A stretch of DNA of 64,000 bases from Lachnospiraceae bacterium (GCA_024680815.1 JAILBQ010000111.1:8600-72599); one strand, 5' to 3'; shown: positions 15,377-20,841, counted from the first letter of the stretch. Notes: a model not told the origin generated them from the letters alone. Made by a program: numbers and translations.

Positions 15377-17428
15377 GTGAACAGTATTATAAAAGAACGG
15401 TTGATGATATTGATCACCACCCTGGCGGGAATATCCTGCATATTGCAGAATTTCTTCGGAGGGTGGGAATTCTGGATGCCTGCGGTGGTTCTGATCGGAG
15501 GCGTGGCTTTGTGGTACGTTCATTTTACCCAGAAGCCGGATTCATACTACAGAATCAATATTTATTTTGCCTATGCGGCTTTACTGCTCTTTTATCACGG
15601 CGTTCACGATACCAGTTTGTTTGATCTTTCTGTCTCCGTTGTGCTTTTTATGGTTACGTTTACAATGGCCGACAGTATAAGGATGCTCAATCTTATCCTG
15701 GCCGAATACGGGATAGTGATGGCGATTCAATTCTGGTTCCTGTACAGGAACGGCGGGCTTAACATGAGTGCGTTTAACGGTATGAGGATAGTTTATCATA
15801 TCGGTACCGTGCTTATTATGTATGTTTTCAGCCGCATTACCGTCAGCAACAGGGTTTCAGAGCGCGAGAGGATAAAAAGGTGGGAGGAATCCGTCCGGGA
15901 AAACGACAGCGATATGGAGGATTTCCTTTCGAATATTTCGCATGAACTGCGTACACCAGTGAACGTGATAAGCGGAATGACTGCCATCATGCAGAAAGAT
16001 AATGACTGCAAAGAGCTTGCCTCCATAAAGGATGCGGGAATCCGGCTGGCCAGGCAGATAGAGGATATTCAGGATTATACGGAGATAAAGCGGGGCGAGC
16101 TCCATCTTGAGGAAGAGAACTATATGAGCATCTCCCTGATAAATGATGTTGTAGCCTACTATAAGGAAAACAACAGGAACAAAAACCTTGATCTGGTCGT
16201 GGATATCGCACCGGAAACGCCGTCGATGCTAAAGGGAGATGTAAAAAAGCTCGGCAAGCTCTTAAGGCATCTTCTGGATAACTCAATCAAGTTTACCAGA
16301 CACGGGGGCATATATATTAAGATGTTCTCTGTGCCGCAGAAATACGGTACAAACCTGACAATAGAGGTTACGGATACAGGCATAGGCATGACCCGGGGGG
16401 AGATGTCACGCCTGTCAAAGGGGATGTATCAGGCCAACAAAAAGCGTAACCGCAGTACCGGAGGAATAGGCACGGGGGTGCCTGTTGTATATGGCTTTGT
16501 ACGCAAAATGGGAGGCTTTGTCAAAATAGACAGCTCAAAGGGCAGAGGCACGACGGTTCACATTTCGATTCCGCAGCAGGTAGTGGATCCGGCTCCCTGT
16601 CTGAAAATTGAAGAGGAAGCCAGGGAGGGTCTGGTTTTCTTCATAAGACCCGAAAAATACAAAGTGCCCGAGGTACGGGAATTCTACAGAAACATGGCCG
16701 TAAACCTGGCCAGGGGGCTTAATGTAAAGCTCTATTCCGCGGGCGAGAAGAGGGAGCTGGAGCAGGTTATAAAGGAGCTTAACATTTCCCATATCTTCAC
16801 GGGCCGGGAGGAATACGAGGACGAAACCGGAATGCTCGATTATTTATTGAGCCAGGGCTACAAGGTGGTGGTGTCCGCGGATGAGGGTTATAAAGCTCCT
16901 CCGGGCAGCGGGATTATGGTGCTCCCCAAGCCCCTGTATGCCTTCCCCATCGTGCGGGTTTTAAACGGTGAAGAGGTTGCGGACGGATACGGGGAGGAGA
17001 ATAAAGGACGGCTTTCCTTTGACGGAGTGCGTGCTCTTGTTGTGGATGACGAGCCCATGAACCTTGTGGTGGCGTCAGGCCTGTTCCGGAATTATGAAAT
17101 GGATATCGATACCGCGGAAAGCGGCAGGGAAGCCATCAAGAAGTTTGACAGGAATGACTATGATGTCATCTTCATGGATCATATGATGCCGGAGATGGAC
17201 GGCGTCGAAGCCATGAAAATCATAAGACAGGCGGCCCTGGGAAGCGGCAGAAAGCCTGTCATTGTCGCTCTTACCGCCAACGCCTTAAGCGGAGCCAGAG
17301 AGATGTTCATAAAAGAGGGATTTGACGGGTTTATTGCCAAACCCATAGATATAGCGGAGTTCGAAAGGGTTATGAAACGTGTCCTGCCCGAAGAATTGTT
17401 TAATTACAAGGGGAGGGATGAGCAGTGA
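15377..17428 (+). CDS. Membrane-bound hybrid histidine kinase (multi-TM, HisKA, HATPase, degenerate REC, REC), no Hpt
   Basis: About 5-6 TM segments; FLSNISHELRTP, LLDNSIKFT, DTGIG, atypical G2 GGIGTG; C-terminal IFMDHMMP. Confidence 0.9.
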   Translation: MNSIIKERLMILITTLAGISCILQNFFGGWEFWMPAVVLIGGVALWYVHFTQKPDSYYRINIYFAYAALLLFYHGVHDTSLFDLSVSVVLFMVTFTMADSIRMLNLILAEYGIVMAIQFWFLYRNGGLNMSAFNGMRIVYHIGTVLIMYVFSRITVSNRVSERERIKRWEESVRENDSDMEDFLSNISHELRTPVNVISGMTAIMQKDNDCKELASIKDAGIRLARQIEDIQDYTEIKRGELHLEEENYMSISLINDVVAYYKENNRNKNLDLVVDIAPETPSMLKGDVKKLGKLLRHLLDNSIKFTRHGGIYIKMFSVPQKYGTNLTIEVTDTGIGMTRGEMSRLSKGMYQANKKRNRSTGGIGTGVPVVYGFVRKMGGFVKIDSSKGRGTTVHISIPQQVVDPAPCLKIEEEAREGLVFFIRPEKYKVPEVREFYRNMAVNLARGLNVKLYSAGEKRELEQVIKELNISHIFTGREEYEDETGMLDYLLSQGYKVVVSADEGYKAPPGSGIMVLPKPLYAFPIVRVLNGEEVADGYGEENKGRLSFDGVRALVVDDEPMNLVVASGLFRNYEMDIDTAESGREAIKKFDRNDYDVIFMDHMMPEMDGVEAMKIIRQAALGSGRKPVIVALTANALSGAREMFIKEGFDGFIAKPIDIAEFERVMKRVLPEELFNYKGRDEQ

Positions 17429-20400: not shown

Positions 20401-20841
20401 GACTGGGAAAATTACACAATCAAGGTACACGCCTTAAAAAGCAGCTCCAGACTTGTGGGCGCAATGAAAATCGGTGAAGATGCCGAAGCGCTGGAAATGG
20501 CGGGGAAGAGGTCGGATATTGATTTCATTACAGACCACCACGACAGCCTCATGGAGGAATACCGCGCCGTGATTGATCAGCTGAAGCCCGTGATGGCAAA
20601 AGCAAAGGAGGATGCTCCGGATATTCCTGAGGATATTCTTTCGGATGCGTATGAAGCGCTTCTGGAATTTTCCGGGGCAATGGATTATGAACTTGTAAAG
20701 ACTGTTCTGGATTCCGTACAGGAATACAAGCTTTCTCCCGGGGATGAGGAACGCTTTGAAAGAGTGAATATATTATTGTCACAGATGGACTGGGATGGTA
20801 TAAAAGAAACTATAAATAACAGGGGGGATTCTGAAGTATGA
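17425..20841 (+). CDS. Hybrid histidine kinase with an internal DegV domain (TM-HisKA-HATPase-REC-DegV-Hpt)
   Basis: FFSSMSHEIRTP, LLNNAVKYT, GTGLG, ILMDHLMP; DegV-like ATSTMSDLP...IIPYTV...TSEPP...NSEYLSSSTG...NCGAGTFG (~19261-20100); Hpt IKVHALKSS. Confidence 0.92.
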   Translation: MKFFGKIKERIFGYLYDSSIYVKDRTFVLFIIAELEALFVQSLISMFLGESRSNSMITLAGVVIGAMLMLLLIKKDKIRTARIVVTLILVCALRPVLFFAKGGINNGTLIMFLLGSYYLVLVLDGVFRVVMCLLDTTVLIACGIMAYYHPVLLADYSRKGNYVHSFIQYIITLIVLTVLIIFQTRIYQKEAKNAEDKSKELEEMNRAQNRFFSSMSHEIRTPINTVLGLNEIILRQEDASEEIRRDAANIQGAGKMLLALINDILDMSKIEAGKMDIVPVNYDVTSLLSDIVNMIWLKAEEKGLKFEADIDPNVPEALYGDEVRIKQILINLLNNAVKYTQAGFVSLHIECEFTGTDDVLLKISVSDTGIGIKPEALPCLFNTFQRVDEEKNRYIEGTGLGLSIVKQLVGLMDGEITVNSVYTQGSTFTVTLKQKVSSDKRIGDINITSSGLPGTGKYEHSFEAPTARILIVDDDEMNLQVEKKLLGETHMHVDLALSGIEALGLTLRNRYDVILMDHLMPEMSGIECFERIRAQKGGLNQNIPVIVLTANAGGENFELYNNTGFDGYLVKPVSGRQLESMLLAHLPAGKVVSTGSIEMTGSQINTADRYAKKKPVVIATSTMSDLPQNIIKELQISIIPYTVITNEGEFFDNIDMDSEELVQYMSEKSRLVTSEPPSEEALARFFSAELKKAHHLIYITLTTSSSREYARAINAAKTFDNVTIVNSEYLSSSTGILVMAAARLAGQGMQVDRIVSELEETKKFIRCSFVVKNADVMARRERISPFMSNILNTFWLRPMLRVVNDRLGVGRFMFGSKMKCYEKYIKHALPSNEGIDTLFVFVTYAGMDEEDLLWIEEKVKERVSFENVVFQKASAGISSNCGAGTFGLLYMIKGNRNYNFGPLFAKETGEAVNREDLPEEEEADIEEGLEETSPGADEGTKEKKWYEDVPGIDPEEAIKVSGTEEAFLSVLQIYYDSYAAKSEEIQGYYDSQDWENYTIKVHALKSSSRLVGAMKIGEDAEALEMAGKRSDIDFITDHHDSLMEEYRAVIDQLKPVMAKAKEDAPDIPEDILSDAYEALLEFSGAMDYELVKTVLDSVQEYKLSPGDEERFERVNILLSQMDWDGIKETINNRGDSEV

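Follow-up and report, generated by a model that had tools for sequence, protein, structure and literature searches.

The subject of this article is a membrane-embedded hybrid histidine kinase, HK2, encoded in a stretch of 64,000 nucleotides from a rumen/gut Lachnospiraceae bacterium (GCA_024680815.1 JAILBQ010000111.1:8600-72599). The whole stretch is called the window below, positions are counted from its first letter, and the genes of the relay described here lie on its + strand. HK2 (17425-20841; 1138 amino acids, aa) carries a domain of the DegV/FakB fold, known from bacterial fatty acid-binding proteins, between its receiver (REC) and its histidine phosphotransfer (Hpt) domain. The reading we favour, to which we give about an even chance of being right, is that HK2 is the second kinase of a conserved Lachnospiraceae module consisting of HK1, HK2 and a response regulator, and that its DegV domain is a lipid-binding regulatory module which tunes a two-kinase phosphorelay. 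The signal read by the relay is probably a lipid.

Hybrid-kinase phosphorelays are already known; what is new is the presence in one of them of a module derived from FakB. To our knowledge, no two-component sensor domain derived from a FakB/DegV fatty acid carrier is known, nor did the papers searched describe one. Literature searches (DegV with histidine kinase or Hpt; sensor histidine kinase and fatty acid; receiver domain) returned no paper on the fusion.

A DegV domain within a hybrid histidine kinase

The HK2 open reading frame overlaps its neighbours at both ends: its GTG start overlaps the stop codon of the upstream kinase gene, HK1, and its stop codon the start of a gene for a response regulator of 255 aa (20838-21605). 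Translation, Pfam, NCBIfam and more than 350 homologues agree on the domain order TM2-HisKA-HATPase-REC-DegV-Hpt. TM2 (aa 1-195; 17425-18009) is a membrane domain of six helices joined by short loops, located in the AlphaFold2 (AF2) model at 22-47, 52-74, 78-100, 108-122, 125-148 and from 158 onward, with conserved residues P95, G102 and G103. A hidden Markov model of TM2 found, in the genome from which the window comes, nothing but the four DegV kinases, TM2 and DegV occurring together in 4/4. The kinase core (18043-18726) is made up of HisKA (aa 207-273, with H217) and HATPase_c (aa 320-434), both recognized by Pfam, and is followed by the receiver (Response_reg, aa 469-581; 18829-19167; E 8.1e-22), with D473, D474, D517, T549 and K571 at its active site. 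The DegV domain (aa 617-891; 19273-20097) matches Pfam PF02645 with an E-value of 1.8e-38 and 132.9 bits (cut-off 27) over profile positions 3-278 of 280, and NCBIfam TIGR00762 with 144 bits (cut-off 99.7). An acidic, poorly conserved linker that is predicted to be disordered (aa 898-944; 20116-20256) separates it from the Hpt helical bundle (aa 945-1060) and a helical C-tail (20257-20838 together). The Hpt assignment is drawn from the AF2 model, from homology to the Hpt domains of the partner kinases, and from a Pfam match (aa 970-1036; E 1.4e-5) whose 25.6 bits are slightly above the 24.6 cut-off; the phospho-accepting residue is H1002 in the motif HALKSSSR.

The catalytic elements are intact throughout a set of 64 orthologues. 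Invariant in all of them are H217, N331/N334/N335, D367-G369-G371 and G397-G399-G401 of the kinase core, the acidic pocket, phospho-Asp, Thr and Lys of the receiver, and the HALKSSSR sequence of the Hpt. The mean consensus fraction falls from 0.94 in the DHp, 0.88 in the CA domain and 0.85 in REC to 0.78 in DegV, 0.72 in Hpt and 0.54 in TM2; for the two linkers it is 0.58 and, between DegV and Hpt, 0.35. Judged from its sequence, HK2 is thus a hybrid, or unorthodox, kinase, with H, N and G boxes, the active-site residues of a receiver, and an Hpt bundle bearing a phospho-accepting His. It shares the order HisKA-HATPase-REC-Hpt and all the phosphorylation sites with ArcB, BarA/GacS, TorS and RpfC. 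The best-scoring NCBIfam kinase models, those for TorS, BarA and ArcB, match only the kinase-receiver part and score far under their equivalog cut-offs. HK2 differs from ArcB-type kinases in the 285-aa domain of lipid-binding fold and two disordered linkers interposed between REC and Hpt, and in the obligate pairing of its gene with that of another hybrid kinase, one without an Hpt.

The initial annotation of the window had proposed a DegV domain at about 19261-20100 inside a hybrid kinase, in the order HisKA-HATPase-REC-DegV-Hpt, and had pointed to altered DegV motifs. Pfam delimits the domain almost identically and gives the same order, which is repeated in the more than 350 homologues. The motifs ATSTMSDLP (aa 619-627), TSEPP (673-677) and NCGAG (880-884) are all present, and HMMER sets them opposite TDSTSDLP, TSQP and H(T/A)GPG of solved DegV/FakB chains, as had been supposed. 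Since so many homologues have equal length and domain order, the architecture is not a product of chance. Those that bear a taxonomic name all belong to the Lachnospiraceae, and their annotations read only "DegV family EDD domain-containing protein" or "fatty acid-binding protein DegV".

Structure prediction, which the initial annotation had suggested as a check, also supports a DegV fold. In the AF2 model of HK2, built on the 64 orthologues, the predicted local distance difference test (pLDDT) is 85-93 for DegV and 76-92 for the Hpt region, which is helical; it falls at 595-612 and at 908-942, the second of these low-confidence linkers being acidic, with values of about 30 between DegV and Hpt. 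By Foldseek, the modelled DegV domain superposes on fatty acid-bound DegV/FakB structures over about 287 columns, with a template-modelling (TM) score of 0.82-0.88 and a root-mean-square deviation (rmsd) of 2.6-3.4 A. Against 2DT8, 1PZX, 4X9X and 7W7H_E the figures for the predicted model are TMt 0.85-0.88 and rmsd 2.6-3.0 A. Because the superposition extends over the length of the fatty acid-bound structures, the insertions that form the tunnel appear to be present, and all the tunnel-forming elements are retained in the model. The domain is real, full-length, well folded in the model and under constraint. With the DegV/FakB proteins (PF02645; S. aureus FakB1 and FakB2, S. suis FakB2 7W7H, 2DT8 from T. 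thermophilus, 1PZX from B. stearothermophilus) it shares the full-length profile and the two-lobed fold. FakB is a soluble protein of 280-300 aa, whereas the HK2 domain sits in a membrane kinase of 1138 aa.

In Staphylococcus aureus FakB1, the carboxylate of the bound fatty acid is held by Thr62, Ser95 and His270, together with Ser171; Arg173, at the tunnel mouth, is required for phosphorylation and neutralizes the acyl-phosphate, and Arg205 (R202 of S. suis FakB2), described as completely conserved, docks FakA and the membrane (PMC8892158, PMC9136124, PMC10848957). These positions were mapped with HMMER and MAFFT alignments, and the columns were counted over the 64 orthologues. The equivalent of Ser95, S706, is invariant. 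Thr62 corresponds to T673, which is variable (T in 23, D in 15, L in 15 and S in 10). Arg173 corresponds to R782, which is Arg in 49/64; the position is Arg in 2/4 of the kinase-borne paralogues in the window's genome, Tyr in Butyrivibrio sp. CB08 and Lys in strain AE2032. Arg205 falls at F814/G815 and is never Arg, nor is it retained in any of the four kinase-borne paralogues, while both stand-alone FakBs of the same genome have it. His270 is replaced by N880, invariant in 64/64 and followed by an invariant C881. The TDS of FakB is TST and TSQP is TSEP. The residues invariant in the DegV domain are S674, S706, N880, C881, G882 and G884, of which S674, S706, N880 and C881 lie at the predicted head-group site; the GxG after the His position is kept. 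Also kept is the amphipathic alpha8-beta9 segment, which at 783-798 (ISPFMNxxLNTLWLRP) is nearly invariant. Its counterpart in FakB1 is the alpha8' loop, which inserts into the membrane and contacts FakA (PMC8892158; PMC10848957).

On these residues the domain was rejected as a FakB. A role as a FakB-like carrier of acyl-phosphate, which the initial annotation had carried over from FakB, is unlikely from the alignments because the Arg205 that docks FakA and the membrane and the carboxylate-binding His270 have been lost; in addition, Thr62 is variable and Arg173 is only partly conserved. The window's genome has six DegV genes, namely four membrane kinases with REC-DegV and two canonical FakBs, separate from HK2, that keep the His and the Arg. 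It also encodes PlsX, PlsY and two FakA-sized Dak2 proteins, and therefore a normal Fak system exists beside the kinase-borne DegV domains. A FakA-sized Dak2 protein was found in 10/10 other genomes with DegV kinases that were tested, so this co-occurrence is uninformative.

Two kinases and one Hpt domain

The pairing of HK2 with a second kinase is strict. The survey of pairs covered 29 loci, 27 obtained by one phmmer pipeline and two from cultured strains by precomputed Pfam matches. An HK1 gene lies directly upstream of the DegV kinase in 29/29, commonly overlapping it by a few bases, and each pair has exactly one Hpt. At 19/29 loci HK2 ends at DegV, and the Hpt is on an HK1 of 819-1015 aa. 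At the other ten it is on HK2, in one case with an N-terminal DegV, and HK1 has 673-695 aa and no Hpt. The window's genome holds both kinds of DegV kinase, two that end at DegV (890 and 903 aa) and two in which an Hpt follows it (1138 and 1147 aa).

The initial annotation had described the DegV domain as inserted between REC and Hpt. This is correct for HK2 itself; it does not define the family, in which DegV is most often C-terminal with the Hpt on HK1, and N-terminal forms also occur. In a tree of the region from TM2 to DegV, seven Hpt-bearing forms make up one branch, implying one change, with 100 in the Shimodaira-Hasegawa-like approximate likelihood ratio test (SH-aLRT), and midpoint rooting nests this branch among the DegV-terminal forms. 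The order REC-DegV-Hpt is therefore derived. A tree of Hpt domains does not support the idea that the Hpt simply moved from HK1 to HK2: the HK2 Hpts group with those of other kinases rather than with those of HK1 (SH-aLRT 99), a weak result from a short tree of 116 columns.

The DegV branch also occurs in other arrangements. When the domain alone was scanned with HMMER against 1.8 billion representative sequences, 156 matches fell below 1e-30, and architectures were counted in the best 150 of these. The commonest architecture, at about 45/150, is a TM-HK-REC-DegV of roughly 890 aa, which in about 10 further proteins is extended by an Hpt. In about seven of these representative clusters DegV is N-terminal, as DegV-TM2-HK-REC-Hpt, one of them with a dCache domain. 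Some are kinase-DegV proteins without REC, and three are true two-domain DegV-Hpt proteins starting from Met (P0166, P0167, P0211). No DegV locus came out of a metagenome scan for P0179, a kinase with DegV at its N-terminus, and the context of that form was taken from genome G019. The branch has thus been seen after REC, ahead of the membrane domain, in fusion with nothing but an Hpt, and joined to a kinase that has no REC. Such varied placements fit a movable sensor module, and all the contexts examined link DegV to phosphorelay proteins. By sequence, the kinase-borne domains belong to a separate "SEPP...NCG" branch of DegV with no solved member; Asn also replaces His in 32/40 of the stand-alone members of that branch.

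Several loci carry other forms of the system. One, in a Lachnospiraceae metagenome-assembled genome (L035, 7335-11611), encodes an HK1-like hybrid kinase of 557 aa, a free DegV-Hpt protein of 434 aa and a REC-GGDEF protein, with no second kinase. Two others (L043, 5951-11624; L044, 6790-12436) have kinases of 862-870 aa that combine HATPase with a membrane domain resembling TM1 and end in DegV, with no receiver. The next two genes at L043 encode GGDEF proteins, one with dCache-HAMP, and genes of equal size and position follow at L044.

With respect to distribution, a full REC+DegV match is present in 28/201 Lachnospiraceae genomes, about one per genus, and none was found (E <= 1e-45) among 397 genomes of the phylum that belong to other families. 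Cultured orthologues are those of Butyrivibrio sp. CB08 (62% identical) and AE2032 (54%).

Possible roles of the DegV domain

HK1 and HK2 are both hybrid kinases embedded in the membrane, their His and Asp sites are intact, and in the window's clade the Hpt they share is the C-terminal end of HK2, after DegV. Under the favoured reading, the DegV domain would no longer pass fatty acid to a fatty acid kinase and would serve instead as a tethered, ligand-binding regulatory module. It would take a fatty acid or a related lipid from the inner leaflet of the membrane, beside its own six-helix domain, using the conserved amphipathic segment whose FakB counterpart inserts into the bilayer. Whether DegV was loaded or empty would alter the exchange of phosphate among the Hpt and REC domains, held on flexible tethers, of the two kinases; contacts made by DegV could tune the flow of phosphate regardless of its position in the chain. 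From the phosphorylated Hpt, phosphate would pass to the 255-aa regulator and, in related modules, to REC-HD-GYP or REC-GGDEF enzymes of cyclic di-GMP (c-di-GMP) turnover. There are precedents for the control of kinases by fatty acids: the hybrid kinase RpfC is activated by a fatty acid, diffusible signal factor (DSF), and signals to the HD-GYP protein RpfG (PMC5391125), and the pool of free fatty acids controls SaeRS (PMC5539427). A more specific proposal, that a membrane-tethered, FakB-derived lipid receptor samples free fatty acids, dietary unsaturated ones for example, or long-chain acyl-phosphate, sets the flow through the shared Hpt and so couples membrane-lipid status to c-di-GMP in rumen/gut Lachnospiraceae, is put forward tentatively, with rather more doubt than confidence. 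In its radical form the bound acyl-phosphate itself would exchange phosphate with the adjoining receiver.

The likeness to the RpfC-RpfG system of Xanthomonas is one of function only, running in both from a fatty acid through a membrane hybrid kinase with an Hpt to a REC-HD-GYP phosphodiesterase of c-di-GMP (PMC5391125). Seven loci related to the window carry REC-HD_5 regulators, but the window's own regulator is not of the HD-GYP type. Moreover, RpfC senses DSF through its N-terminal membrane and sensor region, not through a DegV domain, and its sequence kinship with HK2 is confined to generic kinase domains.

Several observations weigh against a lipid-reading relay of this kind. The Gln64 of TSQP is Glu or Asp in the window's clade, which would disfavour an anionic carboxylate. 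Across the wider branch the network that holds the carboxylate is poorly conserved: among 63 representatives with a C-terminal DegV, the Ser95 position is Ser in 27/63 and the Arg173 position Arg in 27/63. The HK2 model, with a predicted TM-score (pTM) of 0.37 and disordered linkers, gives no contact of DegV with REC or Hpt. Lastly, the regulator in the window has neither an enzymatic nor a DNA-binding output, and the output step is not visible in the window.

The poor retention of FakB head-group residues across the branch would suit a different role, that of a ligand-free docking module which holds HK1, HK2 and the Hpt together. The C-terminal domain of FakA is a model for this, being likewise a DegV-related fold within a larger phosphotransfer protein that serves in protein binding (PMC9136124, PMC10848957). 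The strict pairing with HK1 agrees with docking, as does the correspondence of the most conserved segment, 783-798, to the loop of FakB that contacts FakA (PMC10848957). However, FakA_C is without the tunnel-forming insertions, whereas the HK2 domain retains full DegV length, matches the whole profile and superposes on fatty acid-bound structures with those insertions in place, and the orthologues show no variation at four residues of the head-group site. We consider pure docking unlikely. Somewhat less likely again is the mechanism put forward in the initial annotation, in which the covalent order REC-DegV-Hpt allows bound fatty acid or acyl-phosphate to gate intramolecular transfer from REC to Hpt. 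DegV does directly precede Hpt in the HK2 clade and in the free DegV-Hpt proteins, and the order HK1-like kinase, DegV-Hpt, REC-GGDEF at L035 is in keeping with gating. Because DegV is directly N-terminal to Hpt in these two architectures, some effect of DegV on the Hpt step is plausible from domain order. Set against gating are the 19/29 loci with DegV at the C-terminus and the Hpt on HK1, the existence of N-terminal DegV forms, the restriction of the Hpt-bearing layout to one derived branch, and the loss of residues needed for phosphorylation of FakB by FakA. Rigid steric gating in particular is unlikely, since both linkers around DegV are predicted to be disordered.

The direction of control could also be reversed, with DegV as the output of the receiver and phosphorylation of D517 governing the uptake, release or hand-off of fatty acid, so that the kinase would regulate lipid traffic. 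A receiver followed by DegV mirrors the order of a response regulator and is the commonest layout, and the genome supplies PlsX, PlsY, the two FakA-sized proteins and the two FakBs for such traffic. We regard this as improbable: the Arg that docks FakA is lost, the N-terminal DegV, DegV-Hpt and REC-less kinase-DegV forms have no REC-DegV junction, and the modules have separate response regulators of their own. The most direct chemistry would be for a long-chain acyl-phosphate held by DegV to donate its phosphoryl group to the adjoining REC, or to accept one from it, the relay then reading the acyl-phosphate pool. This idea draws some support from the ability of receiver domains to autophosphorylate with small acyl phosphates, acetyl phosphate among them; in addition, the genome encodes the PlsX and Fak routes to acyl-phosphate, and the head-group site is more acidic than that of FakB (Glu675, and Asn880 in place of His). 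Nevertheless, the Arg173 that neutralizes acyl-phosphate in FakB is variable, being Tyr or Lys in the two cultured strains, and kinases with complete ATP-dependent cores have no need of an extra donor. We find it very improbable. Modulation of the two-kinase relay by a DegV-bound lipid remains the reading we prefer.

Neighbouring genes and outputs

HK1 (15377-17428; 683 aa) has the domain order TM1-HisKA-HATPase-pseudo-receiver-REC, with no Hpt, as assigned from Pfam and a structure model. The best match of that model in the PDB is full-length ShkA of Caulobacter (6QRJ), over 509 columns with an E-value of 7.7e-22. The DHp-CA-pseudoREC-REC architecture of ShkA is common to HK1, not to the DegV kinase, and HK1 differs from it in having a membrane domain. 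The middle domain of HK1, between the ATPase and the true receiver, is modelled as a (beta-alpha)5, receiver-like fold; in sequence its similarity to REC by hhalign is not significant (prob 1.3%), and the receiver-like assignment thus comes from the structure model. ShkA is a kinase activated by c-di-GMP. By analogy, feedback of c-di-GMP on HK1 may be a lead worth following.

The regulator encoded immediately after HK2 has a degenerate, receiver-like N-terminal domain (hhalign against REC: prob 64%, E 6.7e-5) and a canonical REC (Pfam, 133-243). This pseudoREC-REC form, of 252-255 aa, is conserved downstream of Hpt-bearing HK2 kinases at five other loci (L010, L011, L015, L017 and L046). The regulators adjoining the surveyed pairs are REC-HD_5 (HD-GYP type) at 7 loci, REC-GGDEF at 5 and a single REC at 6, and GGDEF proteins come after the REC-less kinase-DegV genes. 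At the level of the family, the kinds of regulator encoded beside the kinases point to c-di-GMP as the end of the pathway. The regulator gene in the window is followed by an open reading frame of 158 aa (21637-22113) with hydrophobic C-terminal helices and no Pfam match, which is not conserved at that place in related loci.

A third kinase gene (12152-15361, + strand) lies 15 nucleotides upstream of HK1. Its product, of 1069 aa, combines by Pfam a sensor resembling [FeFe]-hydrogenase with HisKA-HATPase-REC-Hpt. A similar kinase is encoded at the Butyrivibrio sp. CB08 locus (L046, 14231-17374), downstream of the DegV pair; a 920-aa kinase at another locus (L016) was ruled out as hydrogenase-like. 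The Hpt of the hydrogenase-like kinase in the window groups with the HK2 Hpts in the 116-column tree (SH-aLRT 99), a weak grouping. The relay in the window may integrate an input from hydrogen or redox state with one from the membrane or its lipids.

Farther upstream, at 9328-11810, are genes for a DUF7005 protein, a membrane protein of the VTT/DedA type and a 258-aa protein with no family match. Promoter and terminator scans of the window gave no excess over shuffled sequence. There is no convincing terminator between the kinase genes and ychF/lgt (22129-24167), and the sole strong terminator-like hairpin, at 24130-24167, follows lgt, the gene for prolipoprotein diacylglyceryl transferase. 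Because of its position, the relay genes may be co-transcribed with lgt, which encodes a lipid-modifying enzyme.

The rule of two kinases, one Hpt and one DegV offers a set of natural domain permutations with which the wiring of multi-kinase relays can be worked out, and the orthologues in cultured Butyrivibrio sp. CB08 and AE2032 make the question of a lipid sensor testable now. For the rumen butyrivibrios, which are Lachnospiraceae, unsaturated fatty acids are both a substrate of biohydrogenation and a poison (PMC2836310). If the DegV domain binds lipid, it would represent a new class of cytoplasmic sensor that samples the lipids of the membrane, and would provide the Lachnospiraceae with a direct route from fatty acid status to c-di-GMP and behaviour.

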